Below are positions 5,301-32,000 of a stretch of 32,000 bases of DNA, one piece after another; the stretch's first letter is position 1; each line of letters opens with the position of its first letter. The notes beneath the pieces are model-generated. The model saw nothing but the letters and a program-made list of their open reading frames with translations. It searched no databases and was not told where the DNA came from. This DNA comes from an archaeon (GTDB taxonomy: Archaea; Iainarchaeota; Iainarchaeia; Iainarchaeales; CSSED10-239): assembly GCA_041657425.1 (NCBI GenBank), contig JBBABY010000005.1:1-32000 (forward strand), written 5' to 3'. The position numbers and the translations under genes were made by a program.

Positions 5301-5855
5301 TGGTTAGAATACACTGACGGGAATAATACATCAATAGAATCTCCAATCTATATGAATGAAGGTTCAATTTCAATGGCCATAGGTGGATTAACAGAAAATA
5401 CAGATTATAACATAACAATGTATGTAAGAGATTCATCAGGTAATGTAAATAACGACACAGATAGTTTCAAAACTGATGTAAATGGTCCAGAAGATTATGC
5501 AATTGATTTCCCTAAATCAGGAAGTGGATTCACGTCTGTTTTCTTTGGAGATTTACTTGCAGAATTTGAATTAGAAGGTATGGCGAATTGGGATGAAAAT
5601 TTAGTAATGGATGATTTCCTAAATGCAACAACAGGCCCTGATGAAGAAAGATTAACAAGCGATTTAGTAAATGTCGTATATGTTTACAACTTTGTAGACA
5701 ATGCATGGGATACGATTGATGATGTAGAAGATACAAACTTTTCATCTTATAATATGCAAGATAATTTTACATCATTAAATTATGTTGTGTTTGATTTAGA
5801 GAACGAAGCATTACATAAATCAATTAGACACATGCCAGTTGAAGAAGCAGAATAA
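2388..5855 (+). CDS. Large secreted surface/adhesin-like protein with about 8 tandem Ig-like (Big-type) domains and 2 FN3-like modules
   Basis: N-terminal signal-like segment is MNKSIISKLILGMFLIYFIGSVFA. A ~100-aa unit recurs: (T/L)RPT..I.L.D..L..G.T...TFTFSE..TGF...D.....G.....YTATFTP......N.I.V....D.AGN......S.NY.IDT. It is Thr/Ala/Asn rich, has no C-terminal TM segment, and GGGAGA lies upstream of the ATG. Confidence 0.85.
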   Translation: MNKSIISKLILGMFLIYFIGSVFAICPVTSSDVSITAPLAGNKWGGTQNVTWEILNGKDNTECMYSIYYTIDSENWVSIAMTGDNVTSYSWDTSSRDDGTNYKVGFFIDGAFNVMSGIFTIDNTLPTINSIVLGRDTFTATNNSTTITFTFSEAVTGFTTEDISVANGEISGFTVTGNPLIYTATFTADPNKKDAENTIIVGTDWNDLALNAPLAGLTSGNYTINTVRPTLEITLSDNALKIGDTSTATLTFSEEPTNFTIDDIITHENGTVGDFNNDTGDPLVFTVVFTPTADVEDAVNTITTGTDWTNAAGNPPAEGSTSPNYTIDTLRPTVGIVLADAALKVGETSLVTITFNEAVTGFDNDDITTIANGILTDVNTTDNIIWLATFEPTDDIEDTSNVITITKTGVADLAGNAGASTTSSGNYEIDTKEPILTITMDDNELNYGDTATVTFTFSEAPTGFATADVTVITGAIGTITDTNVLEQTAVLTPTSSRTVALNTVSVSRAWTDAAGNAPEAITYSANYSVDTMRPTPFFLNPPSSPTNDSPMSIKVSFSEGVTTFIEGDIDIVNGTIDESSFTAVSDATYDFNVTPTADGAVTFNIAADKAIDAAGNANTAATQLSIIYDGTAPDVTSIVLADTALKAGETSLVTITFTEAVTGFANADITTIDNGILTTVATSDNIVFTATFTPSINTDDNENVITITESGLTDLAGTAGVGTTSSANYAIDTLRPTLAITIADNDLIIGETTTATFTFSEVPTEFATADVTVGNGAIGAINATNPLIQTATLTPSSGIEDITNVISVATSWADPAGNVPAAVSASANYVVHTDVNAPTITITSDANDTTENSATISADINDLSGGTLDVWTIVSETGTSNMFVAPTRTYSAGTDIEYDINNLDANTDYNYTMYVRDIVGNLGNATGTFTTQASSDDTTEPTVSITVSDIFWDGVYINANIADDSNSLLEVWLEYTDGNNTSIESPIYMNEGSISMAIGGLTENTDYNITMYVRDSSGNVNNDTDSFKTDVNGPEDYAIDFPKSGSGFTSVFFGDLLAEFELEGMANWDENLVMDDFLNATTGPDEERLTSDLVNVVYVYNFVDNAWDTIDDVEDTNFSSYNMQDNFTSLNYVVFDLENEALHKSIRHMPVEEAE
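2754..4880 (+). repeat. Intragenic tandem array of ~300-bp units encoding Ig-like domains
   Basis: Units start near 2754, 3065, 3370, 3670, 3970, 4270 and 4575. Units 3370-3670 and 4270-4570 are about 80% identical at the DNA level by eye, as are 3670-3970 and 4575-4875. Confidence 0.8.
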
Positions 5856-5879
5856 AGAAAAAAGTGGAAAAATTAAAAA

Positions 5880-5885
5880 GAGGAG
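5880..5885 (+). promoter_or_regulatory. Shine-Dalgarno-like site GAGGAG
   Basis: gaggag lies 6 nt upstream of the ATG at 5892. Confidence 0.5.
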
Positions 5886-5891
5886 AATGAT

Positions 5892-7067
5892 ATGATAAAT
5901 TATAAAAAATTAATTAAAACACTTTTTTTATTTTTCTTTATTGGTATTTTAACTGGGGTGGTTTTCGCTTATGGGCCATTAACTGAACCTTGCTGGATTA
6001 AAGGAACAGCAACAGCGGGAGCAGGAATTACTACTGTTGAAGGTTTAACAGTGGAGGCTTATGACGGTAGCACTTTATTAAAAAGTGGAATTATTGCATC
6101 AGGTGCATTCAGTTTAAATTCAATTGGTGCAAATGATGGAGATACAATTTCTATTAAAGTTTATGGGGCAGAGTTTGATACATTTACTTTTGAAGGCTTT
6201 TGTAAAACTGGAGAAAATCCATGGATTGTTTTAAATGCAATAACAATTGCAAAACAAGCAAACGGAGTAAGTTGTTCAAATAATGCAATTTGTACAAGCG
6301 GATATTGTAATTCAAGTAATGTTTGTGCAACAGAAGTAACAGGTGGCGGCGGAAGTAGTTCCGGAGGATTAACAACACTAACAACTACAACCGAAACTTA
6401 TAGTTCAATAGACTCCCCAAGTGCTTCAGAGATAAGAGAGTTATTAGTAAGTACAGGACTTAGTACAAATGAAATACAAGCTTATGTTGATGCAATAAAT
6501 TCAGGACTATTAAGTATTACTACAACTCTTAATGTTGTAAAAACAGGCACGGGTAGTTCAGCAACTTATAAATCTACTTTTACAATTACTATAAGAAATA
6601 ATTCAGGAAGTAATATGGAAGACATAACTGTTGTTCAAGTAATACCTAAAAATATTGCAAGTGATGCTTCTCAAATAATATCATTAACACAATATAGAGT
6701 ATTAGTTGCAGACCCAGTATTAGAATTTACTATTGCCTCATTAAATGCAGGGCAATATGCAACAATTATTTATTCAATTAAAGATAATGTTACAGAAGCA
6801 GAATTTAAAAGCATGTCAGGAGCAGTAGCAAAAGGAACAGTTGTTGAAGCAACACCTATCCCAGTAACTGAAGAAGTAATTGAAGAAATAGACACCACAC
6901 CAAATACTACGCCAGATACAGGATATACAGATACTGGATATATAGATACAACAATTAAGAAATCAAATAACAATTGGATTTATTGGTTAATTGGAATTGT
7001 TATCGTTTTAACAGTTGTTAGGATTTTATTCTTTAAGAAGAATAATCATAGAAGAAAAAGATTATAA
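5892..7067 (+). CDS. Membrane-anchored surface protein (signal peptide, Cys-rich knot, Gly/Ser/Thr linker, C-terminal TM plus basic tail)
   Basis: N-terminus is LFLFFFIGILTGVVFAYG. It has GVSCSNNAICTSGYCNSSNVCA, a GGGGSSSGGLTTLTTTTET linker, and the C-terminal WIYWLIGIVIVLTVVRILFF followed by KKNNHRRKRL. It sits 37 bp downstream of the adhesin gene. Confidence 0.7.
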   Translation: MINYKKLIKTLFLFFFIGILTGVVFAYGPLTEPCWIKGTATAGAGITTVEGLTVEAYDGSTLLKSGIIASGAFSLNSIGANDGDTISIKVYGAEFDTFTFEGFCKTGENPWIVLNAITIAKQANGVSCSNNAICTSGYCNSSNVCATEVTGGGGSSSGGLTTLTTTTETYSSIDSPSASEIRELLVSTGLSTNEIQAYVDAINSGLLSITTTLNVVKTGTGSSATYKSTFTITIRNNSGSNMEDITVVQVIPKNIASDASQIISLTQYRVLVADPVLEFTIASLNAGQYATIIYSIKDNVTEAEFKSMSGAVAKGTVVEATPIPVTEEVIEEIDTTPNTTPDTGYTDTGYIDTTIKKSNNNWIYWLIGIVIVLTVVRILFFKKNNHRRKRL

Positions 7068-11341: not shown

Positions 11342-11396
11342 ATTTAAAATGTTTGCACTGGACATCTGCCCCCGAAAACACCCCCGTTTTAAAAAT
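11342..11396 (+). repeat. Junction element Y, copy B (CCCCC subtype)
   Basis: atttaaaatgtttgcactggacatctgcccccgaaaacacccccgttttaaaaatc; core is at 11353-11364. Confidence 0.75.
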
Positions 11397-11408
11397 CATA
11401 ATATATTT

Positions 11409-12386
11409 ATGGACAAAGAAAAAGAATATTTGATATTTCTTAAAGAAATAAAAGAAAGAATTGTTTCTGCGCAATATAATGCATTAAGAGCAGTTAATAA
11501 AGAACTAATTAATCTGTATTGGGATATAGGTAAAGGGATTGTGGAGAAACAAAAACAATTAGGCTGGGGAAAATCCATAGTAGAGAATCTATCAAAAGAT
11601 TTACAAAAGGAATTTTCTGGCACAAGTGGATTTTCTACAACTAATCTTTGGAGAATAAGAAACTTTTATTATGAATATAGTAAAAATGTAAAACTCGCGC
11701 CATTGGCGCGAGAAATAGGATGGTTTAAAAATGTTATTATTATGGAGAAATGTAAAACTGATGACGAAAGAGAATTTTACATAAAACAGACAAAAGAGAA
11801 CAATTGGACAAAGAATATTTTGATACATCAAATAGAAAACCAAACTTACGAAAAGTATCTTTTAAATCAAACAAACTTTTCTAAAACAATTAAACCAAAA
11901 TTTCAAGGCCAATCTAAACTTGCAGTTAAAGATGAATATACTTTTGATTTTCTAGAACTAAGAGAAGAACATCTAGAAAAAGGATTAATAAGTAAAATAA
12001 AACTATTACTTCTAGAACTAGGAAGCAACTTTTGTTTTGTTGCTAATCAATATAGATTAGAAGTAGGTGGCGAAGAGTTCTTTATTGATCTATTACTATA
12101 TAATCGTTCACTTAAATGTCTTATTGCAATTGAGCTTAAGATTGGTAATTTCAAGCCAGAGTATGTAGGCAAGATGCAATTCTATCTTTCTGCTTTAGAT
12201 GATCTAGTTAGAATCAAAGGAGAAAATAAATCAATAGGGATTATAATTTGTAAAGAAAAAAACAGAACAATTGTAGAATATACTTTAAGAGACACAACTA
12301 AGCCGATAGGAGTTTCAACCTATAAACTTCCACAAAAAATAATTAAATTTCTGCCAACAAAAGAAGAACTAGAAAAAATTATTTAA
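11409..12386 (+). CDS. yhcG: DUF1016 / YhcG-like PD-(D/E)XK nuclease
   Basis: The N-terminus is YLIFLKEIKERIVSAQYNALRAVNKELINLYWDIGKGI. The nuclease core is FFIDLLLYNRSLKCLIAIELKIGNFKPEYVGKMQFYLSALDD. ATG 11409 matches family N-termini better than the track start 11349, which lies in the repeat. Confidence 0.8.
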   Translation: MDKEKEYLIFLKEIKERIVSAQYNALRAVNKELINLYWDIGKGIVEKQKQLGWGKSIVENLSKDLQKEFSGTSGFSTTNLWRIRNFYYEYSKNVKLAPLAREIGWFKNVIIMEKCKTDDEREFYIKQTKENNWTKNILIHQIENQTYEKYLLNQTNFSKTIKPKFQGQSKLAVKDEYTFDFLELREEHLEKGLISKIKLLLLELGSNFCFVANQYRLEVGGEEFFIDLLLYNRSLKCLIAIELKIGNFKPEYVGKMQFYLSALDDLVRIKGENKSIGIIICKEKNRTIVEYTLRDTTKPIGVSTYKLPQKIIKFLPTKEELEKII

Positions 12387-12424: not shown

Positions 12425-12467
12425 TTTTAATAATGCTTGCCCTATAATATATATTGATGTGATTTTT

Positions 12468-13787
12468 ATGCAACTTACAAGTGAACAGATTTATGCAACA
12501 ATTAAGACTCAAACAGGGCTAGAGGATTCTGAACTTAATAAAAAGATAGAAGAGATTAAGGAAAAGTATCAAGGGCTCTTAAGTGATGTCGGTGCAAATA
12601 TTCTTCTTTCTAAACAGTTAGGAGTTAATTTAGATTTAAAACAAAAAACTAGTTCAATAACTAAAATTTCTGAAATTAATGCAACTATTGATTCTGTTTC
12701 TCTTTATGCAAGAATAAAATCAATCCCTCCAGTAAAGAACTATAAATCAAAGGATGGAAAGGAAGGAAAGATTCAAGCAGTTTATTTAGCTGATGAAACA
12801 GGCATTATAAAATTAAATTTATGGCAAGATAAAGCAGAGTTAATACATGAACAAAACTTTGAAAAGAATGATCTTGTTTTGATAAAGGATGCGGCAATAA
12901 ACCAGTACAATGAAAAGATAGAATTATCTTTAAGACAAGGCGGGCAAATAATTAAAGATCCTGAAGGCGTTACTGTTCCAAAGATTGAAGAAAAAGTAAT
13001 TAAAATTTCAGGAATTGATGCAGCGCCAGAAGGCCCAGTTGATACTATTGGAAGAATAATTGCAATCTATCCACTTAGGACTTTTAAAAAAGAAGACAAG
13101 GAAAGATTTGCAATTAATTTTGAGATAAGTGATGGCCTAAAGTCAATGAAGTGCGCGGCTTTTGATACCTGGGCTCAAGAGATATCCACCAATTATAAGA
13201 AAGGAGATTTAGTAAGATTATCTGATGTTGTAATTAAGGACGGATTATATGATCTAGAGTTATACATTAATTGGAATTCAACAATTACAAAGAATCCAAA
13301 TACAAAAATAAAGATTCCTGCATTAAGTGAATTAATTTCTGCAGATTTAAAAGAAGAGAAAATTCCAAGTCTTCAAAACAATAACAGCTATAAGATTACA
13401 GGCACAGTAATTTCTGTAAATAAAGGAAATTTAAGATCATTTAAGTGTCCAGATTGTAAAGAGAAAGTTTTCTTAATCAATAATGAATTTATTTGTGAGG
13501 CTTGTAATAAACAAGTAGATCCTGAAATGAATATCTTTTCTTCAGTTAATGTTGATGATGGAGATGGCGTAATAAAAGTAAGTCTTTTCAATCAACTTTT
13601 AGAAAGTGTTTATGATTTAAAGAAAGAAGACTTAAAGAAAGACTTAACACAAGAAGAAAAAGACAATATTTTTTCAAAAGCAGAAGGAAAGATACTTGGT
13701 AAGCAAGCAATAATAACAGGAAAAGCAAAGCAGAATGATTTTTCCAATCAACTAGAATTCATGGCTGGCACTTTTGAAATTGTTTAA
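12468..13787 (+). CDS. rpa: Replication protein A-like ssDNA-binding protein (multiple OB folds plus a zinc ribbon)
   Basis: Repeated OB-like segments are present (VSLYARIKSI..., GRIIAIYPLRTF..., YKITGTVISVNKG...). The zinc ribbon is CPDCKEKV...CEACNKQV. It sits beside mcm. I prefer ATG 12468 over GTG 12459. Confidence 0.7.
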   Translation: MQLTSEQIYATIKTQTGLEDSELNKKIEEIKEKYQGLLSDVGANILLSKQLGVNLDLKQKTSSITKISEINATIDSVSLYARIKSIPPVKNYKSKDGKEGKIQAVYLADETGIIKLNLWQDKAELIHEQNFEKNDLVLIKDAAINQYNEKIELSLRQGGQIIKDPEGVTVPKIEEKVIKISGIDAAPEGPVDTIGRIIAIYPLRTFKKEDKERFAINFEISDGLKSMKCAAFDTWAQEISTNYKKGDLVRLSDVVIKDGLYDLELYINWNSTITKNPNTKIKIPALSELISADLKEEKIPSLQNNNSYKITGTVISVNKGNLRSFKCPDCKEKVFLINNEFICEACNKQVDPEMNIFSSVNVDDGDGVIKVSLFNQLLESVYDLKKEDLKKDLTQEEKDNIFSKAEGKILGKQAIITGKAKQNDFSNQLEFMAGTFEIV

Positions 13788-13943: not shown

Positions 13944-16070
13944 ATGACTGATTTTGATTTTGATGAATTGGACGAGGGGTTTAAAGATCAAACCAACTTG
14001 GCGCTTGATGAATATATTTCTATTTTTGAAGAATTCCTTGATGCAGTTTATAAAAAAGAAATTGAAATCTTAGCTTCTAATTATCCAGATAAGAAAAGTT
14101 TAGATATCGATTATAAAAGACTAGAAGCTTTTGATTTAAATATTGCAGAAAGATTAATTGAAAATCCAAATCTAATAATTGAAGCAGCAACTGCGGCTCT
14201 TCGTAAGATTGATGTCGGGATTTTAGAACAAACAGATCAAAGATTTGAACCGCATATGCGTTTCTTTAATCTACCAGAGGAATACAGAGTTGATATTAGA
14301 GAAATTGGTTCAAAACATTTAACAAGTTTAATCTCCGCAGAAGGAATGATTAGACAAACAACAGAAAGATTACAAAAAATGATGGAAGCCCATTTCATTT
14401 GTAGAAAGTGTCAAAATAGTTATAACATTAAACAAACAACACAGATACTGGCAAAACCAATCATGTGTGATTGTAAGTCTAGAGAGTTTGATTTAGATCT
14501 AGAACAAAGTAAATTTATTGATTATCAAAAAATAGATATGCAAGAACCAATTGAAAATTTAAAAGGTAGTGAACAAGCAAATCACGTTGAAGTTTTTATT
14601 TCTGATGACCTTGTTAATTCTTGTTCAGCAGGAGATAAGATAATAGTAACAGGTGTCGTAAAGTTAAAACCACAGAAAGACACAAACATGTTTAACAAGT
14701 ACATGATAGCAAATCATGTAGAAAGAGTTGATCAAGAATTTGAAGAATTAGATATAACTCCTGACGAGATTGAAGAGATTAGACAACTTGCAAAAAAAGA
14801 AGACATCTTTGAACTTCTTGCTCAATCAATTGCTCCAAAGATCTATGGTCATGAAGTAGTTAAGGAAGCAATTACTCTTCAAATGTTTGGGGGAGTAAAA
14901 AAGAAAGTTCAAAAGCAAGAGTTTAGAGGCAATATTCACATCCTTCTTGTCGGTGATCCATCAACTGGAAAGTCCGAACTTTTAAGAAATGCAGCAACAA
15001 TTGCTCCTAAGTCAATTTTTGTCTCTGGAAAAAGTGCATCAGGTGCAGGTTTAACAGTTTCTGCAGTCAAGGATGATTTCGGTGAGGGTGGCTGGACACT
15101 TAAAGCAGGTGCAGTTGTTCTTGCAAGTGGTGGAATTGCTATGATCGATGAATTCGATAAGATGGAACCAGAAGATAGAAGTACTCTTCACGAAGCCATG
15201 GCTCAAGCAACAGTTTCTGTTTCTAAAGCTGGACTTTATGCAAAGTTTAGAGCAGATACGTCAATCTTAGCAGCAGCTAACCCTAAGTTTAACAGATTTG
15301 ATAAATTCAAAAATCCAATCGAACAAATTGATTTACCATTTTCTCTTCTTTCTAGATTTGATTTATATTTCATAATGAGAGATACATTAAACAGAACACT
15401 AGATATTGAACTTAGTAAACACATTATTGCAGTTCAAGAAGCTGCACAGAAATTATCTTCTCCTGACGGAGAATTATCAAAAGAAGAAATGGAACAAATA
15501 CAAGATAGTGTTCTTCCAAAAATCGAACCAAATATTTTCAAGAAATTTGTTGCTTATGCAAGACAGCAAATAAAACCAAAGTTAAGTAAAGAAGCTTCTG
15601 AAAGAATATTAAATTACTATATTGACTTAAGAGACCTAGGAAGAAAATCAGAAAGCTTTGGTGCAACTCCAAGACAGTTAGAGGGTTTAATCAGATTATC
15701 AGAAGCAAGTGCAAAAGTTAGATTAAAGCACACAATAGAATTAGAAGACGCGCAAAGAGCAATTAGAATATTTAGAGTTTCTCTTGAGCAAACAGCAATT
15801 GATCTAGAAACAGGAAAGATTGATATTGATATTATAACAACAGGAACATCAACAAGTGAAAGGCAATTTATAAAAAGAATTTTAAATATAATTAAGGATT
15901 TAACAGCAGACGGCAACCCCGTAAACTTCTCAGACATTGCAGAAACCATGGAGAAACAAAATATTGGTAAAGACAAGTTAATGGAAGCAATAGGAAAATT
16001 AAAGAAATCAGGAGAACTTTATGAACCAAAGAATGGTTTTTTAAAACCTGTTGATAATAATGCTATGTAG
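13944..16070 (+). CDS. mcm: MCM replicative helicase
   Basis: Zinc motif is CRKCQ...CDCKS, Walker A is LLVGDPSTGKSELL, Walker B is IAMIDEFDKM, and the arginine-finger region is SLLSRFDLYFIM. Length is 708 aa. Confidence 0.95.
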   Translation: MTDFDFDELDEGFKDQTNLALDEYISIFEEFLDAVYKKEIEILASNYPDKKSLDIDYKRLEAFDLNIAERLIENPNLIIEAATAALRKIDVGILEQTDQRFEPHMRFFNLPEEYRVDIREIGSKHLTSLISAEGMIRQTTERLQKMMEAHFICRKCQNSYNIKQTTQILAKPIMCDCKSREFDLDLEQSKFIDYQKIDMQEPIENLKGSEQANHVEVFISDDLVNSCSAGDKIIVTGVVKLKPQKDTNMFNKYMIANHVERVDQEFEELDITPDEIEEIRQLAKKEDIFELLAQSIAPKIYGHEVVKEAITLQMFGGVKKKVQKQEFRGNIHILLVGDPSTGKSELLRNAATIAPKSIFVSGKSASGAGLTVSAVKDDFGEGGWTLKAGAVVLASGGIAMIDEFDKMEPEDRSTLHEAMAQATVSVSKAGLYAKFRADTSILAAANPKFNRFDKFKNPIEQIDLPFSLLSRFDLYFIMRDTLNRTLDIELSKHIIAVQEAAQKLSSPDGELSKEEMEQIQDSVLPKIEPNIFKKFVAYARQQIKPKLSKEASERILNYYIDLRDLGRKSESFGATPRQLEGLIRLSEASAKVRLKHTIELEDAQRAIRIFRVSLEQTAIDLETGKIDIDIITTGTSTSERQFIKRILNIIKDLTADGNPVNFSDIAETMEKQNIGKDKLMEAIGKLKKSGELYEPKNGFLKPVDNNAM

Positions 16071-22838: not shown

Positions 22839-22961
22839 TTTAATTTTTTTAAAAACAAGCATCTATTTTTAAAGATTTTTCACTACAATATATATATAAA
22901 TATAATATATATACTATTATATGTTTCGAACAAAATTTAACGATTTTTATAAGTGATAATA

Positions 22962-24668
22962 ATGGCTGAAAAAGAAGTTACTAAGAAGGATACTAAGGAA
23001 GTTGCAAGAAAGGAAATAGGTGCTGACCAATTATTTACTGAGTTTAAAGAACATTCAGTAGCAGATTTCTTTAAGAAAAACAAGCAGATGCTAGGTCTTT
23101 CTGGTAAGCAAAGAACTTTAACTACAATAATACACGAGCTTGTGACCAATTCTCTTGATGCTTGTGAAGAAGCAGGCATACTTCCTGAGATTGAGGTACA
23201 CCTTTCTGAACTCGGTTCTGAATATTATGAAATTTCAGTAATGGATAATGGTCCAGGAATACCTGAAGACAAATTAGCAAGTGCTATGGGAAAACTTCTA
23301 GCAGGAACAAAATTCCATAGACTAGTACAAACAAGAGGTCAACAAGGTATTGGTGTTAGTGGAATCATTCTTTTGTCTCAAATGACAACAGGGAAACCTA
23401 CAAAAGTAATTTCTGGAACTAATACAGGAAAAACTGTTTCTATAGAAATTTCAATAGACAGTAAAACAAATACTCCAAAAGTTACAGACAAACATTATCT
23501 TGATAATAAACATAAAGGCTTAGCAGTTAAATGTAAATTTAAAGACATAGTCTATAAGAAAGGACAAAACAGCGTTGATGAATATTTAAGAAGAACAGCA
23601 ATTGCTAATCCTCACTTAACATTAAAGTTTGAAGACCCAAGTGGAGAAATTACAAAGTACACAAGAACAATTAATAAACTTCCAAGTATCCCAACAGCAG
23701 TTAAGCCTCATCCAAGAGGAGTAACAGTTGATGAAATGTTAACTTATGCAAGACATTCTCCTGCAAGAAAAGTTAATTCATTTTTAACAACAACATTTGA
23801 TAGATTTGGACAAACATCAATTGATGGTGTTCAAGCATTAGCTCATTTTGATTTAAATAAAGATCCAAAGTCATTAACTTGGGAAGAAGCAGAAGATTTA
23901 ATTAAAGCAATTAAACAAACGAAATTTATTGCGCCAAGTACAGATAATCTTGTTCCAATTGGAGAAGAGCACATACAGAAATCTCTAAAGGCAATTGTTA
24001 ATCCTGAATTTTTAGCAGTAGTTACAAGAAAACCATCAGTTTACCAAGGTGGTTATGCTTTCCAGATAGAAGCAGGAGTTGCTTATGGTGGTAATGCAGG
24101 AAGATTGATTTCTGTAGAAAAAACAAATGGTAAAGAAGTAGTGACAGAAGAAGTAAGGTCTTCTGAAATTATAAGATATGCAAACAAAGCTCCATTGTTA
24201 TTTGATGCAGGCGGTTGTGCAATAACAAAAACTGTTGAATCAGTTGAATGGAAAAGATATGGTGTGAGTAATTTTGATAATAATCCAATCACTGTTTTTA
24301 TTAATTTAATTTCAGTACACATCCCATACACTTCTGCAGGAAAGTCTGCAGTTTCTGATGACCCAGACATTGTTTCAGAAATAAAACTTGCATTAATGGA
24401 AGTTGCAAGAAAGGTTGGCTTCTACATTATTGAAAAGAAAAGAGAAGAAGAAAAGAAAGAAAAGAAAAAAGTATTTACAAAATATGCTCCGTATGTTGTA
24501 GAGGCATTAATCCACACAACTGGAGAAAAGAATAAAGAGTTACTTCTAAAAAATCTAAATAACATGGTTCTTGAAAAACTAAAGATGGAAGAAGCAGGAA
24601 TTAAAACTCCAGAAGATGAAGTTGTTGACGACGACACAGTTGCAGAAGAAGAGGAGTTTGAAGAATAG
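22962..24668 (+). CDS. top6B: DNA topoisomerase VI subunit B
   Basis: GHKL/Bergerat motifs are ELVTNSLDA, DNGPGIP and GQQGIGVSG. ATG 22962 (MAEKEV) is preferred. Confidence 0.95.
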   Translation: MAEKEVTKKDTKEVARKEIGADQLFTEFKEHSVADFFKKNKQMLGLSGKQRTLTTIIHELVTNSLDACEEAGILPEIEVHLSELGSEYYEISVMDNGPGIPEDKLASAMGKLLAGTKFHRLVQTRGQQGIGVSGIILLSQMTTGKPTKVISGTNTGKTVSIEISIDSKTNTPKVTDKHYLDNKHKGLAVKCKFKDIVYKKGQNSVDEYLRRTAIANPHLTLKFEDPSGEITKYTRTINKLPSIPTAVKPHPRGVTVDEMLTYARHSPARKVNSFLTTTFDRFGQTSIDGVQALAHFDLNKDPKSLTWEEAEDLIKAIKQTKFIAPSTDNLVPIGEEHIQKSLKAIVNPEFLAVVTRKPSVYQGGYAFQIEAGVAYGGNAGRLISVEKTNGKEVVTEEVRSSEIIRYANKAPLLFDAGGCAITKTVESVEWKRYGVSNFDNNPITVFINLISVHIPYTSAGKSAVSDDPDIVSEIKLALMEVARKVGFYIIEKKREEEKKEKKKVFTKYAPYVVEALIHTTGEKNKELLLKNLNNMVLEKLKMEEAGIKTPEDEVVDDDTVAEEEEFEE

Positions 24669-24678
24669 GTGAACAATT

Positions 24679-25839
24679 ATGGTTGCAAAAAAAGAAACTA
24701 AATCTGAAAAAAAGCACGTTCATAAGGGTCTTGATACTTATGAGACAGAAACAACTAAAGATATAGAACAAAGAACTCTTCAAATTGCTAAAGATATTGT
24801 TGATCAAATAAAAGGAAATAGATCTCCAACTTTTACAACAAAAGTTAGAGGTTTAAGTAATGTTTATTTTGATGATGAGAAACAATATATTCAATTAGGA
24901 GATAAAAAAGTTGTTAGACCTTTCTTAAATCTTGGAGCTGCAAGAAAGTTCATGCAAACAATGTTAATTAATGATAAATGTAATGAATATTTAAAAGAAG
25001 GAAAGACAGCATCAATCAGAGAAATTTATTATGAACTTAAAAGAACAGTAGCTAATACTAAAGAAAATACTTTCGATGGTCAGAATGAATCTGATGAAGT
25101 TATTGTTGATGTTGAGCACGCAGCAAGTACTATTAGAGAAAAGTTAGGACTTCATGCTGAAGCAAAAGGTTCTCTTTATGGTGACATTACATTAAAAGAT
25201 TTAAAACACGATGACGATATTTTCAATTGCGGTTCTCTAGGTAGGGGCGGTTGGAGTATTATGTCAAGAATCGAACCAGAAGAAGTTGAGATTGTTGATG
25301 TTAACGCAGATATGGTTTTAGTTATTGAAACAGCAGCAATGTACAATAGACTAATTGAAGAAAAGTTTGCAAAGCAACACAACGCAATTCTTATTGGAAC
25401 AGGTGGTCAAGCAGCAAGAGGAGCAAGAAGACTTGTTCATAGATTAAGATACGAGTATGATCTTCCAGTAATTGTGTTTACTGATGGAGACCCTTACGGT
25501 TGGTATATTTATTCAGTTATCAAGAGTGGATCAATGGCTCTTGCTGCTCACTCTAAATACATGGCAGTACCTGATGCAAAGTATGTAGGAATGACCATAA
25601 CGGATGTTGAAACATACGGTCTTTCAAACGTTACTGAAAAAATGAAAGACGGGGACATTAAGAGAGCAAAGGAATTAATGAATTATCCTTGGTTTAAGTC
25701 AAAAGAATGGCAATCTGAATTAAAAATTGCAATTGATAAGAAAATAAGAATTGAACAACAGGCTCTTGCAAACAAGTCACTTGATTTCGTTGCAAGGAAG
25801 TATCTTCCAGAAAAGATTGAAAAAGAGATATTTTTATAA
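24679..25839 (+). CDS. top6A: DNA topoisomerase VI subunit A (Spo11-like)
   Basis: REIYYELK carries the catalytic Tyr region. The Toprim domain is VLVIETAAMYNRL ... FTDGDPYGWYIY. It lies 10 nt downstream of top6B. Confidence 0.95.
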   Translation: MVAKKETKSEKKHVHKGLDTYETETTKDIEQRTLQIAKDIVDQIKGNRSPTFTTKVRGLSNVYFDDEKQYIQLGDKKVVRPFLNLGAARKFMQTMLINDKCNEYLKEGKTASIREIYYELKRTVANTKENTFDGQNESDEVIVDVEHAASTIREKLGLHAEAKGSLYGDITLKDLKHDDDIFNCGSLGRGGWSIMSRIEPEEVEIVDVNADMVLVIETAAMYNRLIEEKFAKQHNAILIGTGGQAARGARRLVHRLRYEYDLPVIVFTDGDPYGWYIYSVIKSGSMALAAHSKYMAVPDAKYVGMTITDVETYGLSNVTEKMKDGDIKRAKELMNYPWFKSKEWQSELKIAIDKKIRIEQQALANKSLDFVARKYLPEKIEKEIFL

Positions 25840-27996: not shown

Positions 27997-28103
27997 AATA
28001 AAAGGAAAATGAAAGAATATTTAAATGTAGTTTTTTATAGACTATTTATAATTTGTTTGATTCTTAAATTAAATATATAAGCTAATTTTAAAAAATGATA
28101 ATT

Positions 28104-29294
28104 ATGAACATATTAGTAATTAATGCAGGAAGCAGTTCCTTAAAGTTTCAATATATTAATCCAGATACAAAAGCTGTATTAATTAAAGGAAATTATGATG
28201 GAATAAATAGAAGCGACGGTAACCCTTGTTTGAAAAAGATTTCAATTTCTGGCCACAGCACAGTTGATAATTTAATTATTGTAAATCACGAGCAAGCAAT
28301 TGAAGATATGCTTGTAACATTAACTGAAAAAAAAGTAATTACGAGATTTTCAGAAATAGAATTTATTGGACATAGAGTTGTTCATGGAGCAGAAGAATAT
28401 TCAAAAACTACAGAAATTACTGATCAAATGTTAGAGTCTTTAAAGATTGTTTCTTTTTTAGCTCCACTTCATAATCCAATAAATATTAAATGTATAGAAA
28501 TCTTAAAAGAGAAATTGCCAGAAGCAAAACAATATGCAGTATTTGACACCGCTTTTCATCAAACAATGCCTGATAAGATTTTCTTGTATGCCTTACCAAA
28601 AGACTTATATGATAAATTCAAGATTAGAAAATATGGCTTTCACGGAATAAGCCATCAATATGTTTCTAAGCAAGTTGCTGAAATTCTAAATAAAGACTAT
28701 AATAAATTAAATATAATAACTTGTCATTTAGGTAACGGTCAAAGCATTTGTGCAATCAAACAAGGAAAGAGCTATGACACCTCTATGGGCTTTACTCCTG
28801 TTGATGGGCTTCCAATGGGAACAAGAAGTGGAAGTTTTGATCCCGAAATTATTCTTTTCCTTTTAGAGAAAGGCTACACTAAAGAAGAAATTAAAAATCT
28901 AATAAACAAGAAGTCAGGACTTCTAGGAATAAGTCAAATAAGCAGTGATCACAGGCAAATTGAAGAACTTTCAAAAAAGGGATTTTTGTTTGCAAGACTT
29001 GCTAATGATATTCTTAACACAAGAATAATAAACATCATTGGAAGTTATGCCGCAGAAATGAATGGAGTAGACGTTATTGTTTTTACTGGCGGTATTGGAG
29101 AAAAATCAGCTTACTTAAGAGAACAAATTCTTGAAAACTTTACTTATCTTGGTTTAGAGATAGACAAAGCAGCAAATGACGAACACGAATTAATAATCAC
29201 AAAACCAAACAGCAAAGTAATAGCAATGGTAATTCCAACAAATGAAGAATTAGAAATTGCAATAGAAACAAGTGAGAAAATAAGAAAAGGTTAA
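28104..29294 (+). CDS. ackA: Acetate kinase
   Basis: Motifs are ILVINAGSSSLKFQ, GHRVVHG, APLHNP, FDTAFHQTMP, YGFHGISH, ITCHLGNG, PMGTRSGSFDP, VFTGGIGE and IPTNEELEIA. Confidence 0.92.
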   Translation: MNILVINAGSSSLKFQYINPDTKAVLIKGNYDGINRSDGNPCLKKISISGHSTVDNLIIVNHEQAIEDMLVTLTEKKVITRFSEIEFIGHRVVHGAEEYSKTTEITDQMLESLKIVSFLAPLHNPINIKCIEILKEKLPEAKQYAVFDTAFHQTMPDKIFLYALPKDLYDKFKIRKYGFHGISHQYVSKQVAEILNKDYNKLNIITCHLGNGQSICAIKQGKSYDTSMGFTPVDGLPMGTRSGSFDPEIILFLLEKGYTKEEIKNLINKKSGLLGISQISSDHRQIEELSKKGFLFARLANDILNTRIINIIGSYAAEMNGVDVIVFTGGIGEKSAYLREQILENFTYLGLEIDKAANDEHELIITKPNSKVIAMVIPTNEELEIAIETSEKIRKG

Positions 29295-31343
29295 TTACTT
29301 TTCATTTCCCATTTTTTCTAATTTCAAAAGTTCATTCCATCTTCTGTCTATTTCTTCCTGTATTGATTTAAGAACTGCTTTATTCTCTGGTTTTAAAACA
29401 CTTTTAAATTTAGTTTGTGTTTTTAAGAATTCTTCAATTGGTAGTTTGTTTGTTGGTTTGTAATTGATAATTACTTTTCCATTAACCACTTCATAAAGAG
29501 GCCAAAAGCAAGTTTCAGTTGCAAGTTTACTTATCTTAATTGTTTGTGAAGAATCTGCCTTCATGTTTGTTGGGCAAGCTGCAAATGCAATTAGAACTGC
29601 AGGGCCAGAAACATCAAATGCTTTCTTTGCTTTTTCAAATATATCAACTTGGTTAGAAGGATTAATTTGAGCAACATAAGGAATGTTATGAGCTGCTGCA
29701 ATCTTTGTTAAATCTTTTGAGAACTCTACTTTACCATAAGAACACTTCCCTGAAGGAGTTGTTGAGGTTATTGCACCCTTTGGCGTTGCTGAGCTTCTCT
29801 GGTTGCCTGTGTTGTGTACTACAACCCCATCAGCAATGAAATTATGTTCTCCTTCAACTCTTAAATCAAAGGTTTGTTCTTTGCCAACTTCTTTAATATT
29901 TTTTATAATTTCAGTATCGAAGTTTTCATTTCCAATCAAAAAGTTTTGATATTTATATTGTGTAGGATATTTAGTTGTATTCCAATAATCTTTTTTACTA
30001 AAACAAATATAGTGATATTCTGAATTTTTCAGTAATTTCTTTCCAACGACAAGAGTTCCTTTTTCTTTTTTTTGAGTTGTAATTTTACCAACTCTGTAAT
30101 TAAGTGTCTGTAATAATAATCTTAATCTTAAGATTAATTCTTTACTTGCAGACACATATCTACAACTATCTTTTTTCTTTTTATGAATATACCCGTCAGA
30201 TAACAACAACCCTTCAATAAATGCTTCTTTTTGCTCATCTGGAATCGTATAAACCCAAGAAGGAATTATTTTATTCTTTGCACCTTTGTTAAATCCAAGG
30301 GATTCAATAAATTTAGTTATGTTAACTGAATTCATATAGATGTAAGTTTTATCAGTAGTAATTGTCTTAAATCCAAATACTTTTTTACAAGTAGTTATAC
30401 ATTTTTCTCTACCCTCTGTTCCTTCAGGTAAGGCAAAACCTATTTCTCCTTTATCTCTAATCCAACCATCTCCAAGATAAAGTCCTAAGAATAACATTAA
30501 ATCTGTTGTTGATTTTTCTGGTATTTTTACATCATTAATTACATTTACTTTATAATCGCCTTTCTTTGAAAGTTGTATTTTTTCAAAAGTAAACGGTTTA
30601 TTTCCTTTTAATTTCTTTAATGTAATTATTTGATCTCCTTTTTTTAATTCTTCAAGTGTTTTCCAAATTAAAGTGTTTGGTTTTCCTCTTGGAAGTTTAT
30701 TAACAACTAAGAATGGGTGATTTCCTGTTGCTTTGATGTTATGATGAAAAGTTTCAATTTCATAAACTTTCTTAACTCCATTATCAAACACACCACTGCA
30801 TTTTTTCAGAACCAATTTGTGTGTTTTTTGATCAAATGCATAAACCATTTCTCCAACTTTAATTTCAGTTATTTTTTTAAGTCCGGTTTCTGTGTAAATT
30901 AATGAGTCTTTACTTAAGCAATTCATGTACCCTTCATTCGAATAACAAAGATAAACAAAATCATGTCCTCTTTCTAGTGCTCCAGATAAACTTTGAAGAC
31001 CAATATCAAAACTTCCACCATCTCCAGCAATTACTAAAAAATTAATGTCTTTTTTTATTTTTCCTTTTTTCTTTTGTGCTCTGTATGCACTTTCAACTCC
31101 AGAAATTGTTGCGGCAGAGTTTGCAAAAAGAGAATGTATCCAAGGAATATTCCATGCAGTCTGTGGATAAACTGTTGTTGTAACTTCTGCACAAGAAGTT
31201 GCGCTGCTTGCAACAACTGGTTTGTCGCTTGCCGCAATCACAGTCTTACAAATAATTGCAATGGGGCACCCTGCACAAGTTCTGTATCCTGGAACCATTG
31301 CTTTACTTTCAGCTAATTTAATAGCAAGTTCTTTTGAGTTCAT
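29295..31343 (-). CDS. porB: Pyruvate/2-oxoacid:ferredoxin oxidoreductase beta (TPP-binding, PorB-like) subunit, interrupted by an intein
   Basis: The N-extein (141 aa) has PGYRTCAGCP and the TPP motif GDGGSFDIGLQSLSGALERGHDFVYLCYSNEGYMN. The C-extein (171 aa) resumes with TGNQRSSATPKGAITSTTPSGK. The spliced product would be 312 aa. Confidence 0.85.
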   Translation of the reverse strand: MNSKELAIKLAESKAMVPGYRTCAGCPIAIICKTVIAASDKPVVASSATSCAEVTTTVYPQTAWNIPWIHSLFANSAATISGVESAYRAQKKKGKIKKDINFLVIAGDGGSFDIGLQSLSGALERGHDFVYLCYSNEGYMNCLSKDSLIYTETGLKKITEIKVGEMVYAFDQKTHKLVLKKCSGVFDNGVKKVYEIETFHHNIKATGNHPFLVVNKLPRGKPNTLIWKTLEELKKGDQIITLKKLKGNKPFTFEKIQLSKKGDYKVNVINDVKIPEKSTTDLMLFLGLYLGDGWIRDKGEIGFALPEGTEGREKCITTCKKVFGFKTITTDKTYIYMNSVNITKFIESLGFNKGAKNKIIPSWVYTIPDEQKEAFIEGLLLSDGYIHKKKKDSCRYVSASKELILRLRLLLQTLNYRVGKITTQKKEKGTLVVGKKLLKNSEYHYICFSKKDYWNTTKYPTQYKYQNFLIGNENFDTEIIKNIKEVGKEQTFDLRVEGEHNFIADGVVVHNTGNQRSSATPKGAITSTTPSGKCSYGKVEFSKDLTKIAAAHNIPYVAQINPSNQVDIFEKAKKAFDVSGPAVLIAFAACPTNMKADSSQTIKISKLATETCFWPLYEVVNGKVIINYKPTNKLPIEEFLKTQTKFKSVLKPENKAVLKSIQEEIDRRWNELLKLEKMGNEK
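29811..30920 (-). mobile_element. Class 1 intein (370 aa) with a LAGLIDADG homing-endonuclease domain
   Basis: It starts with Cys (CLSKDSLIY, block A). Block B is KATGNHPFLV. The LAGLIDADG motifs are LFLGLYLGDGWI and FIEGLLLSDGYI. The C-terminal blocks are EHNFIADGVVVHN, followed by a +1 Thr. Confidence 0.88.
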
Positions 31344-31346
31344 GTT

Positions 31347-32000
31347 TTATTCCTTTTCTTTTTCAAATCTGTGTTTTTTATAATTATCAACCATCGCTAA
31401 AATTAAATCTCTAAATGCTGGATTTTTTATAACATCGTTATTATTAGGATATGCAGATTCTTTCTGTCTGCCTTTAGAGGGGTTAAATAAAATTGCATCA
31501 ATTTTATTTTCCCCGTCTAATTTTAATGTGCTAGGTAATTGCTTTGTTCCATCACGCATGCTCCAATCATAACCTATAAGTTTTGAATTTATGTTACTAT
31601 CAGATAATACTCGACGAATCGGATATTGCATATATGTCCAATCATCGGATCTTGCAGCTGAAGAATATCCAACAAATGATGCTGGCATTTTCTTACTATC
31701 ACTAGCATCTACAAATATAAAAACTGGATCTTTATATTCTTGTTTATAATTATTGATAAATTTCATAAACGTATTAACAATTATTCTTGTTTTTGTTCCA
31801 TCTCCAACTTCTCCATATCTTCGATCAGGATTACTTGAAGGATATTTAAATTTATCTACAATTACTTTTTTACCATCTGGTTTAATTGACCAAGTATAAG
31901 GCACACCAGTACTTGCAATACCTACCACAACTATTGGTCTTTTTGTAAGTTTTGAAATTCTATTTACAAAAAATTCAGTAATTAAAATCTCTTTTCTAAA
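31347..32000 (-). CDS. Hypothetical protein, 5' end outside the window; tightly coupled upstream of porB
   Basis: The frame stays open from 31347 to the window edge (..FRKEILITEFFVNRISKLTKRPIVVVGIASTG..). Its stop is 3 nt from the porB start. It does not resemble PorA, PorG or PorD by eye. Confidence 0.5.
   Translation of the reverse strand, partial: FRKEILITEFFVNRISKLTKRPIVVVGIASTGVPYTWSIKPDGKKVIVDKFKYPSSNPDRRYGEVGDGTKTRIIVNTFMKFINNYKQEYKDPVFIFVDASDSKKMPASFVGYSSAARSDDWTYMQYPIRRVLSDSNINSKLIGYDWSMRDGTKQLPSTLKLDGENKIDAILFNPSKGRQKESAYPNNNDVIKNPAFRDLILAMVDNYKKHRFEKEKE

Follow-up and report, generated by a model that had tools for sequence, protein, structure and literature searches.

An insertion in the active-site loop of a PorB-like subunit

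What is a 370-residue insertion doing in the active-site loop of a central metabolic enzyme, and can it still splice and move? The question is raised by a gene in the 32,000-nucleotide stretch of DNA analysed here (the window), which comes from an uncultured archaeon of DPANN type, probably of the Iainarchaeota. The gene and its parts lie on the minus strand. The precursor open reading frame (29295..31343), delineated from the ORF list together with NCBIfam and Pfam matches, runs through 682 codons without interruption to a stop codon, and its Pfam TPP_enzyme_C domain is divided by the insertion. Removal of the insert leaves an extein of 312 aa that is collinear with PorB, as originally predicted: the NCBIfam PorB model NF008819 matches it with 335.6 bits over positions 7-296 of 300, and the beta subunit of pyruvate:ferredoxin oxidoreductase (PFOR; PDB 9bt4_C) aligns with an E-value of 5.6e-77. 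Because the score lies below the NF008819 equivalog cut-off of 405 bits, "PorB-like" is the safe label. PorB is still the top NCBIfam family (VorB, 275 bits; OOR beta, 245 bits), and the choice between pyruvate and another 2-oxoacid as substrate is not certain.

The exteins align with 9bt4_C and with the OOR beta subunit 5c4i_C. The N-extein (30921..31343) comprises PorB residues 1-141 and ends in NEGYMN, and the 171-aa C-extein (29298..29810) starts with TGNQRSSATP. Cysteines C23, C26 and C51 of the N-extein and a fourth within FAACPTN of the C-extein (29565-29585) align with cysteines of both structures; going by PFOR structures, we take these four to be the ligands of the proximal [4Fe-4S] cluster. 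The TPP/Mg motif GDG-X26-N (G107...N136; 30936..31025) conforms to the pattern GDG-X(24-27)-N, with PF02775 scoring 65 bits on the spliced extein, and its numbering agrees with that of StOFOR, where GDG is 89b-91b and the motif Asn is Asn118b (PMC5020499).

The original prediction placed the insertion in this TPP/active-site loop, which is correct, but directly after the motif Asn. The intein instead follows N141, five residues past N136. N141 is the equivalent of Leu123b of StOFOR1 and of Asn996 of the D. africanus PFOR (DaPFOR), residues with a described role in the substrate pocket (PMC5020499). Three separate insertion sites fall within about 35 residues of the PorB TPP loop. Such insertions in a cofactor- and substrate-binding loop are in keeping with the general preference of inteins for the most conserved functional sites.

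The window stops before porA. In the syntenic relative L001 the gene order is porG-porD-porA-X-porB::intein; family and PDB searches returned nothing usable for gene X, upstream of porB. The acetate kinase gene (ack) adjoins porB::intein, and the MCM, RPA, Top6A and Top6B proteins of the window are, as previously noted, intein-free.

Architecture and conservation of the intein

The insert (CLSKDSL...VVVHN, 370 aa, 29811..30920) is a genuine intein, with exactly the predicted coordinates. Pfam Intein_splicing (PF14890) scores 72.3 bits (E 5e-20; curated cut-off 35.8), LAGLIDADG_3 (PF14528) exceeds its curated cut-off with 35.4 bits, and the intein N- and C-terminal models TIGR01445 and TIGR01443 are both over their cut-offs. 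An AlphaFold (AF2) model reached a pLDDT of 90.5 and a pTM of 0.89. Its top Foldseek match is TliVMA (7qsu; E 2e-21, TM 0.73), followed by PI-PkoII and PI-SceI; the endonuclease I-Tsp061I (2dch) is matched as well, and the HINT fold is supported by matches with a Foldseek probability of 1.0 to Hedgehog Hint and to mini-inteins of DnaB, RecA and GyrA. These family and structural matches are far beyond chance.

The HINT N-lobe (residues 1-108; 30597..30920), whose edge was set by the deletions found in mini-inteins, contains block A with Cys1 (30882-30920; Cys1 codon 30918-30920) and block B, IKATGNHPFLV (30705-30737), with T65-G-N-H68. It is followed by the LAGLIDADG endonuclease module (residues 109-316; 29973..30596), the segment that mini-inteins lack, delimited by LAGLIDADG_3, the model helices and Foldseek. 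Motif 1, LMLFLGLYLGDGWI (D151; 30459-30500), and motif 2, KEAFIEGLLLSDGYI (D242; 30186-30230), terminate model helices 139-151 and 228-241 as LGLYLGD151G and LLLSD242G, respectively. The HINT C-lobe (residues 317-370; 29811..29972) carries block F, QTFDLRVEGEHNFIADG (29826-29876), with D352 and H359, and block G, VVVHN (29811-29825), with H369-N370; the codon of the +1 Thr, first of the C-extein, lies at 29808-29810.

The class-1 hallmarks are thus all present (Cys1, T65-G-N-H68, D352, H359, H369-N370 and the +1 Thr), and with the two LAGLIDADG Asp every residue named in the original prediction is accounted for. In an alignment of 154 family inteins, Cys1 (154/154), T65 and H68 are kept in every member covering them, and D352, H359, H369 and N370 are invariant in 154/154. 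Among the full-length members, D151 is retained in 120/129 and D242 in 128/129. This copy has both, and no loss of a catalytic residue was found in it on the family alignment, the check for decay that had been proposed. The intein is probably active.

Proposed splicing and homing cycle

The conserved residues suggest the following steps. The host enzyme would be a four-subunit pyruvate (2-oxoacid):ferredoxin oxidoreductase, of which this gene would encode the beta subunit, translated first as a 682-aa precursor. Cys1 would then attack the N141-C142 bond in an N-S acyl shift assisted by T65 and H68 of block B, after which the side chain of the +1 Thr would take over the N-extein. Cyclisation of Asn370, helped by H369 and by D352 and H359 of block F, would release the intein, and an O-N shift would remake the continuous NEGYMN-TGNQRSS loop, yielding a 312-aa PorB able to bind TPP-Mg and to build the pocket for pyruvate. 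Before splicing, the protein should be inactive, since the substrate-pocket Asn and the conserved TGxQ(R)S that follows lie 370 residues apart. Once freed, the intein would be expected to work as a site-specific endonuclease, cutting intein-less porB near the junction of GAAGGNTAYATGAAT and ACNGGNAAYCAR, and repair from an intein-bearing copy would let the element spread by homing.

Relationship to known inteins

Examples of public copies are those of the uncultured archaea CAZGLB010000043 (L003) and DAOOON010000019 (L004), with 92% intein identity, "archaeon isolate ELA007" JBAWVI010000018 (L001/L007), with 72%, and Candidatus Forterrea multitransposorum CP045477.1 (L009), with 68%. Public PorB inteins share with the window copy the site (YMN/C...HN/TG, slashes marking the junctions), the architecture and a length of 365-372 aa, and close relatives share its gene neighbourhood too; sequence divergence is the sole difference.

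More distantly, the VMA inteins of Thermococcus litoralis and Pyrococcus horikoshii (7qsu, 7qss, 7qst), PI-PkoII (2cw7) and PI-SceI (1vde, 1lws) likewise have a HINT domain into which a double-motif LAGLIDADG endonuclease is inserted (Foldseek E 2e-21 to 1e-12, TM up to 0.73). However, their sequence identity to the PorB intein is just 13-21%, they occupy other sites in other hosts (ATPase, DNA polymerase), and PI-SceI and PI-PkoII exceed the PorB intein in size, having additional regions for DNA recognition. The nearest inteins outside PorB, in SufB, T4-like phage portal proteins and a subtilase (P0243, P0246, P0247, P0251, P0259), align over their full length as class-1 LAGLIDADG inteins, but with 31-38% identity. 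Members of the PorB family share at least 54%, and these other inteins represent a different allele and lineage.

A metabolic host had been considered unusual. It is indeed uncommon, but not unprecedented: InBase alleles include the M. jannaschii inteins of PEP synthase, UDP-glucose dehydrogenase and glutamine-fructose-6-P transaminase (GF6P transaminase), which share with PorB a metabolic host and a conserved functional site while the hosts themselves differ. The InBase alleles are not known to include a TPP or PFOR host. The list of intein hosts is extended by PorB, an oxygen-sensitive TPP/Fe-S enzyme that is central to anaerobic metabolism.

A widely dispersed allele

The original prediction implied that the PorB site was new. 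The same intein nevertheless occurs at the YMN/TG site in at least 195 GTDB species-representative genomes of DPANN, Asgard, Bathyarchaeia, ANME-1, Omnitrophota, Aerophobetes, Patescibacteria and Cloacimonadota, taxon labels that, for metagenome-assembled genomes, may contain binning errors, and in 182 protein clusters; some records even carry the JGI machine label [quoted passage not shown]. The insertion site is identical in every best match with its junctions covered. Full-text literature searches yielded no description of a PorB intein, and Novikova et al. 2016 gives none in its main text. The PorB intein is therefore undescribed in the literature but already in public data, and the window copy is an ordinary member of one widely dispersed intein allele. 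Taken alone, this copy matters little, being another standard LAGLIDADG intein.

Shortened inteins at the same site (18 mini-inteins and 7 with part of the endonuclease deleted, among the 154) point to later stages of a homing cycle. IMG/VR yielded no PorB intein, just distant inteins in other genes with at most 29% full-length identity; viral vectors of the PorB intein are thus unsupported by this search.

Empty sites, selection and probable movement between lineages

The proposed survey of relatives for intein-free alleles was successful. L083, whose empty site reads GATAATGAAGGGTACATGAAT directly followed by ACTGGTAATCAACGTTCATCAGCA, carries P0121, a 308-aa intein-free PorB that shares 95% identity with the reconstructed extein; a second intein-free protein, P0122, shows 84% identity. 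The neighbourhood of L084 (porB, ack, permease, top6A) is that of the window, yet its porB is uninterrupted, and in the extein tree intein-plus and intein-minus alleles are interleaved.

Relative to the closest relatives (L003-L006), dN/dS is 0.07-0.14 for the endonuclease, 0.01-0.09 for the HINT lobes and 0.10-0.18 for the exteins; endonuclease and exteins are under purifying selection. The selection on the endonuclease, together with the presence/absence polymorphism, makes competence for both splicing and homing plausible at the level of sequence. A decayed, non-splicing HINT-LAGLIDADG block in a non-functional porB copy is scarcely credible: the sub-cut-off equivalog score of the extein is compatible with this general possibility, but the frame of 682 codons and all catalytic residues are intact, both exteins are strongly constrained, the TPP motif and the four cluster cysteines are conserved, and the gene sits in a por operon context.

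In 1302 pairings of an archaeal with a bacterial copy, the inteins share 61% identity on average (81% at most) and the exteins 51% (66% at most); in 92% of these pairs the inteins are more alike than the exteins. L049 and L074, compared with L075, share 80-81% of intein but 47-49% of extein residues. These patterns argue that the PorB intein very likely moves between lineages, Archaea and Bacteria among them, with repeated gain and loss. The presence of near-identical inteins in archaeal and bacterial porB clearly marks DNA exchange between the domains, and the lineages taking part (DPANN, Patescibacteria, Omnitrophota, Asgard and others) are found together in sediment and groundwater.

In the clade to which the window belongs, intein identities of 92, 84, 72 and 68% are accompanied by extein identities of 95-89, 89-84, 72-67 and 72-66%, respectively. 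Because the two diverge in parallel, long vertical inheritance with occasional precise loss explains this clade no less well than ongoing homing. Flanking DNA of the window, L083, L084 and nine intein-bearing relatives contains no clean co-conversion tract splitting plus from minus alleles. A patch of synonymous differences between the window and L083 just 3' of the site (67-77% identity versus 89% overall) was considered as a co-conversion tract or a sign of target-site immunity but is uninformative, since the same variants occur in the intein-bearing L005.

Parallel divergence, suggestive of vertical descent, and the lack of a co-conversion signature in the flanking DNA would also fit an intein that still splices but whose endonuclease no longer cuts in this lineage, persisting only because imprecise deletion would ruin an essential active-site loop. 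Some family members do have D151N, D151Y or partial endonuclease deletions, and the close relative L022 reads LGLYLENGW. We regard this explanation as unlikely, though worth weighing, since both catalytic Asp are retained in this copy, the dN/dS of the endonuclease is no higher than the value for the host enzyme, a result unexpected for a dead domain, and empty alleles stand beside occupied ones at 95% extein identity. We favour, with considerable confidence, a canonical class-1 intein with a double-motif LAGLIDADG endonuclease, inserted in frame in the PorB active-site loop and representing a mobile allele.

A possible role in PorB maturation

Mobility need not be the only reason for persistence. 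Splicing might be conditional, with redox state, oxygen, temperature or a cofactor gating PFOR maturation, and selection favouring both a benefit to the host and selfish spread. The non-catalytic Cys41 is conserved in every covering family member, mini-inteins included, and redox-controlled splicing through Cys1 disulfides is documented in other inteins. The host protein belongs to an oxygen-sensitive enzyme of strict anaerobes, and the intein has persisted for long under purifying selection. The gene lies beside acetate kinase. PFOR opens the route from pyruvate through acetyl-CoA to acetate, possibly the sole ATP-yielding pathway of the organism; for energy, a related DPANN genome is reported to depend on the same pathway (PMC5905446). 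Sister lineages without the intein, however, indicate that it is dispensable, Cys41 may be purely structural, and homing explains purifying selection on the endonuclease more simply, so that conditional splicing appears improbable. Slightly more doubtful still is its specific form, in which the PorB intein would be more than a parasite, acting, for instance, through Cys1 and Cys41 as a redox or oxygen sensor that gates maturation of PFOR, the key enzyme of energy metabolism in ultra-small anaerobes. If true, such a switch would explain the persistence of a full-length, selected intein and its spread across DPANN, Patescibacteria and Omnitrophota, and would make the PorB TPP loop a hotspot for this kind of control.

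Annotation of intein-bearing porB genes

Many NCBI records of intein-bearing porB genes list a truncated product of 537-542 aa that begins with "MNC" and is named "LAGLIDADG family homing endonuclease" or "hypothetical protein". A split porB with a separate N-extein gene was ruled out, as the DNA of L001 and L002 contains continuous frames of 681 and 663 codons, respectively; with the N-extein in frame in both, the "MNC" proteins are truncated gene calls. Since such annotations leave out the N-extein, PFOR can go unnoticed when the metabolism of these organisms is reconstructed automatically.

A full-length intein interrupts a PorB-like subunit

The interrupted porB gene encodes 682 aa (29295..31343, minus strand), of which a 370-aa insert, CLSKDSL...VVVHN, occupies exactly 29811..30920. 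The insert alone matched the Pfam families Intein_splicing (72.3 bits; cut-off 35.8) and LAGLIDADG_3 (35.4 bits; cut-off 22.5), and scored above the cut-offs of both the N-terminal and the C-terminal NCBIfam intein models. Its AlphaFold model (pLDDT 90.5, pTM 0.89) most closely resembled endonuclease-bearing inteins, namely TliVMA (7qsu; E 2e-21, TM 0.73), PhoVMA, PI-PkoII and PI-SceI, with mini-inteins and Hedgehog Hint domains ranked lower. The reading frame, family models and fold together establish that this is a real intein.

All hallmarks named in the original prediction were located and are intact (minus strand; residues numbered 1-370 within the intein). They comprise Cys1 of Block A (30918-30920), Block B (IKAT65GNH68PFLV, 30705-30737), LAGLIDADG helix 1 (LMLFLGLYLGD151GWI, 30459-30500) and helix 2 (KEAFIEGLLLSD242GYI, 30186-30230), Block F (QTFD352LRVEGEH359NFIADG, 29826-29876), Block G (VVVH369N370, 29811-29825) and the +1 Thr (29808-29810). 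Mini-intein relatives lack the region from residues ~105-130 to ~314-327, which puts the limits of the endonuclease module near residues 109 and 316 (29973-30596). On this sequence evidence, it is reasonable to call the window copy a probably competent intein. G+C content is 27.6% in the intein (29811-30920) versus 35.0% in the exteins (29295-29810 and 30921-31343), with a window average of 30.2%.

Removal of the insert leaves a 312-aa extein collinear with PorB from end to end. Of the NCBIfam families, NF008819 (PorB) fitted it best: the alignment spans positions 7-296 of 300 and scores 335.6 bits, short of the 405 set as the equivalog cut-off. The extein also matched the solved PFOR beta subunit 9bt4_C (E 5.6e-77), oxalate oxidoreductase beta (5c4i_C) and domain VI of Desulfovibrio africanus PFOR (1b0p). 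These matches bear out a PorB-like host that is collinear apart from the 370-aa insert.

An insertion within the cofactor and substrate loop

The thiamine-pyrophosphate (TPP)/Mg motif reads G107-D-G109-X26-N136. The insertion had been placed immediately after the Asn that ends this motif; it in fact follows N141, five residues on, although the intein does split the cofactor/substrate loop. In Sulfolobus tokodaii OFOR, GDG spans residues 89b-91b, the Mg-binding Asn is Asn118b, and Leu123b corresponds to Asn996 of D. africanus PFOR, a residue that lines the substrate methyl-group pocket, rotates when pyruvate binds and affects substrate specificity (PMC5020499). Because the motif spacing here is identical to that of the S. 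tokodaii enzyme and the alignment to 1b0p is gap-free and in agreement, the -1 residue N141 is equivalent to Asn996.

Standard class-1 splicing would begin with an N-S shift at Cys1, followed by movement of the N-extein onto Thr+1, cyclisation of Asn370 and an O-N shift, restoring the YMN-TGNQRSS loop and the 312-aa PorB. Until it is spliced, the precursor should lack activity, as its TPP/substrate loop is split. Once freed, the 370-aa protein would be expected to cleave porB alleles that lack the intein and to spread via gene conversion.

PorB harbors at least two further insertion sites beside YMN|TG, making three in one TPP loop. One, GDGG|S(F/Y)DIG, is occupied in locus L022 (1543-4617) and database protein P0245, with a partial relative of its intein in P0387; the other, LYV|CYDNE, is occupied in L018 (919-4611). 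Two inteins are present in each of L018, L022 and P0245, and the L018 pair lies only nine extein residues apart. Two of the best 80 genomes have an additional site, and searching with the P0245 intein retrieved only one further protein; such sites thus look rare.

A widespread PorB intein family in archaea and bacteria

The family-level pattern, comprising probable inter-domain transfer, three TPP-loop sites and systematic mis-annotation, is of more note than the single copy. An intein-only protein search returned 182 clusters at E < 1e-5; among the best 120, wherever covered, the junctions read ...NE[AG]YMN|C and ...VHN|TG[IVN]QRS. A genome scan with one genome per GTDB species yielded at least 195 loci, and in 78 of the best 80 the frame runs through without a break and holds the intein at YMN|TG. 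The exceptions were L031, with no matching frame, and L053, with undetermined residues just past the C-terminal junction.

According to record titles, the archaea that carry the intein include Iainarchaeota (Candidatus Forterrea multitransposorum, a complete genome, is one), Bathyarchaeia, Heimdallarchaeota, ANME-1, and Woese-, Nano-, Aenigmat- and Micrarchaeota, and the bacteria include Omnitrophota, Aerophobetes, Parcubacteria/Patescibacteria, Cloacimonadota and a Dependentiae-like MAG. The window groups with Iainarchaeota sequences on the extein tree, which points to a DPANN (Iainarchaeota) origin; its closest intein relatives, L003 and L004, share 92% identity with it. Within a library reduced by clustering at 50% identity, members are at least 54% identical to one another, whereas the next inteins (SufB, T4-like portal proteins and a subtilase) reach 31-38%; by sequence, the family is sharply set apart from other inteins.

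At the level of public data, this abundance removes the novelty that the original prediction had implied for the site. Several JGI entries already bear the machine-given name 'pyruvate/2-oxoacid:ferredoxin oxidoreductase beta subunit/intein/homing endonuclease'. We know of no PorB allele in InBase. In NCBIfam 20.0 there were matches to curated intein-containing exception models for GyrA, RtcB and Tes and to an intein-containing RecA model, but none to a model of an intein-containing PorB. Full-text literature searches yielded no publication on a PorB or PFOR intein. Hosts linked to pyruvate, ferredoxin or TPP go unmentioned in the main text of the Novikova et al. 2016 survey, as do inteins in the Forterrea genome paper. 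The allele is therefore undescribed in the literature searched, yet abundant in public data and in part automatically annotated there.

Public gene calls are frequently truncated: 25 of the best 120 proteins (of 182) start with 'MNC...', at a Met two residues ahead of the intein, and about eight more of these 120 start at an intein-internal Met. Truncated entries (P0001-P0058 set) carry the name 'LAGLIDADG family homing endonuclease' or 'hypothetical protein' and leave the N-extein unannotated. In the DNA itself the frame is continuous, as in L001 (called 3316-4944 versus an open reading frame of 2899-4944) and L002 (4796-6409 versus 4418-6409).

Conservation, empty sites and mobility

Splicing residues C1, T65, H68, D352, H359, H369 and N370 are kept wherever covered among 154 inteins with both junctions. 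Of 129 full-length members, 120 have Asp at position 151 and 128 have it at position 242; in the window copy both are present. In comparisons with its nearest intein-bearing relatives (L003-L006), dN/dS came to 0.01-0.09 in the HINT lobes, 0.07-0.14 in the endonuclease and 0.10-0.18 in the exteins; constraint on the endonuclease is as strong as that on the host enzyme.

The extein homologues closest to the window copy lack the intein: P0121 (95% extein identity, 308 aa) and P0122 (84%). On L084, the contig of P0122, porB, ack, xanthine/uracil permease and top6A follow in the same order as in the window, and porB is uninterrupted. A neighbour-joining tree of the exteins mixes occupied with empty alleles, which pair as window/P0121, L007/P0129 and L010/P0131.

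Across archaeon-bacterium pairs (73 loci), intein identity averaged 61% (maximum 81%) and extein identity 51% (maximum 66%), with the intein the more similar in 92% of pairs. Archaeal L049 and L074 share 80-81% intein identity with L075 (Cloacimonadota), but only 47-49% in the exteins. Decay forms at the same site comprise seven partial endonuclease deletions and 18 mini-inteins.

Collectively, conservation, selection, empty sites, discordance and decay forms represent every stage of a homing cycle: empty, invaded, degenerating endonuclease and mini-intein. We argue that the family is probably mobile now or was recently, also across domains. In the clade of the window itself, divergence of the intein parallels that of the exteins, so local vertical descent with precise losses is inseparable there from local homing.

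Over its first 30 nt (29781-29810), the C-extein differs at 10 positions from the empty allele in L083, which is otherwise 89% identical. All 10 are synonymous, including AGA/CGT Arg and AGC/TCA Ser codon switches. Because intein-bearing L005 has the same variants, this stretch does not serve as evidence of co-conversion or immunity.

Gene neighborhood

Upstream of porB lies a conserved open reading frame, X (31347-32000, minus strand, running off the window end; ~273-286 aa; also L001 2061-2882 and L083 3-863). Its stop is 3 nt from the porB start, indicating tight coupling. X yielded no match in Pfam, PHROG or the PDB, and its only NCBIfam hit was a sub-threshold 19 bits to a ribosome hibernation factor family. 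In L001 it sits between porA and porB, in the order porG-porD-porA-X-porB::intein; it is missing in L084 and L002, in which porA and porB are direct neighbors.

A full-length acetate kinase gene (28095-29294, plus strand; Pfam Acetate_kinase, 450 bits) is convergent with porB and adjoins its stop codon, a layout shared with L084; no pta gene is visible within the window. Bacterial-type Ack is uncommon in archaea. A related DPANN genome was reported to depend on the route from pyruvate through acetyl-CoA to acetate for ATP (PMC5905446), which would place the intein in a key energy enzyme. This location, together with a non-catalytic Cys41 conserved across the family, leaves some scope for conditional splicing of the PorB intein, but we consider such regulation unlikely.

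As originally noted, the replication and topoisomerase genes of the window are intein-free: a domain search found no intein domains in MCM (13944-16070), RPA (12459-13787), Top6B (22953-24668) or Top6A (24679-25839). Elsewhere, a 1155-aa protein with seven Big_12 Ig-like repeats (2388-5855, plus strand; 450 bits) is presumably a large surface protein, and the plus strand also encodes an archaeal ATPase_2/DUF234 protein (306-1745) and a YhcG-type PDDEXK nuclease (DUF1016; 11349-12386).
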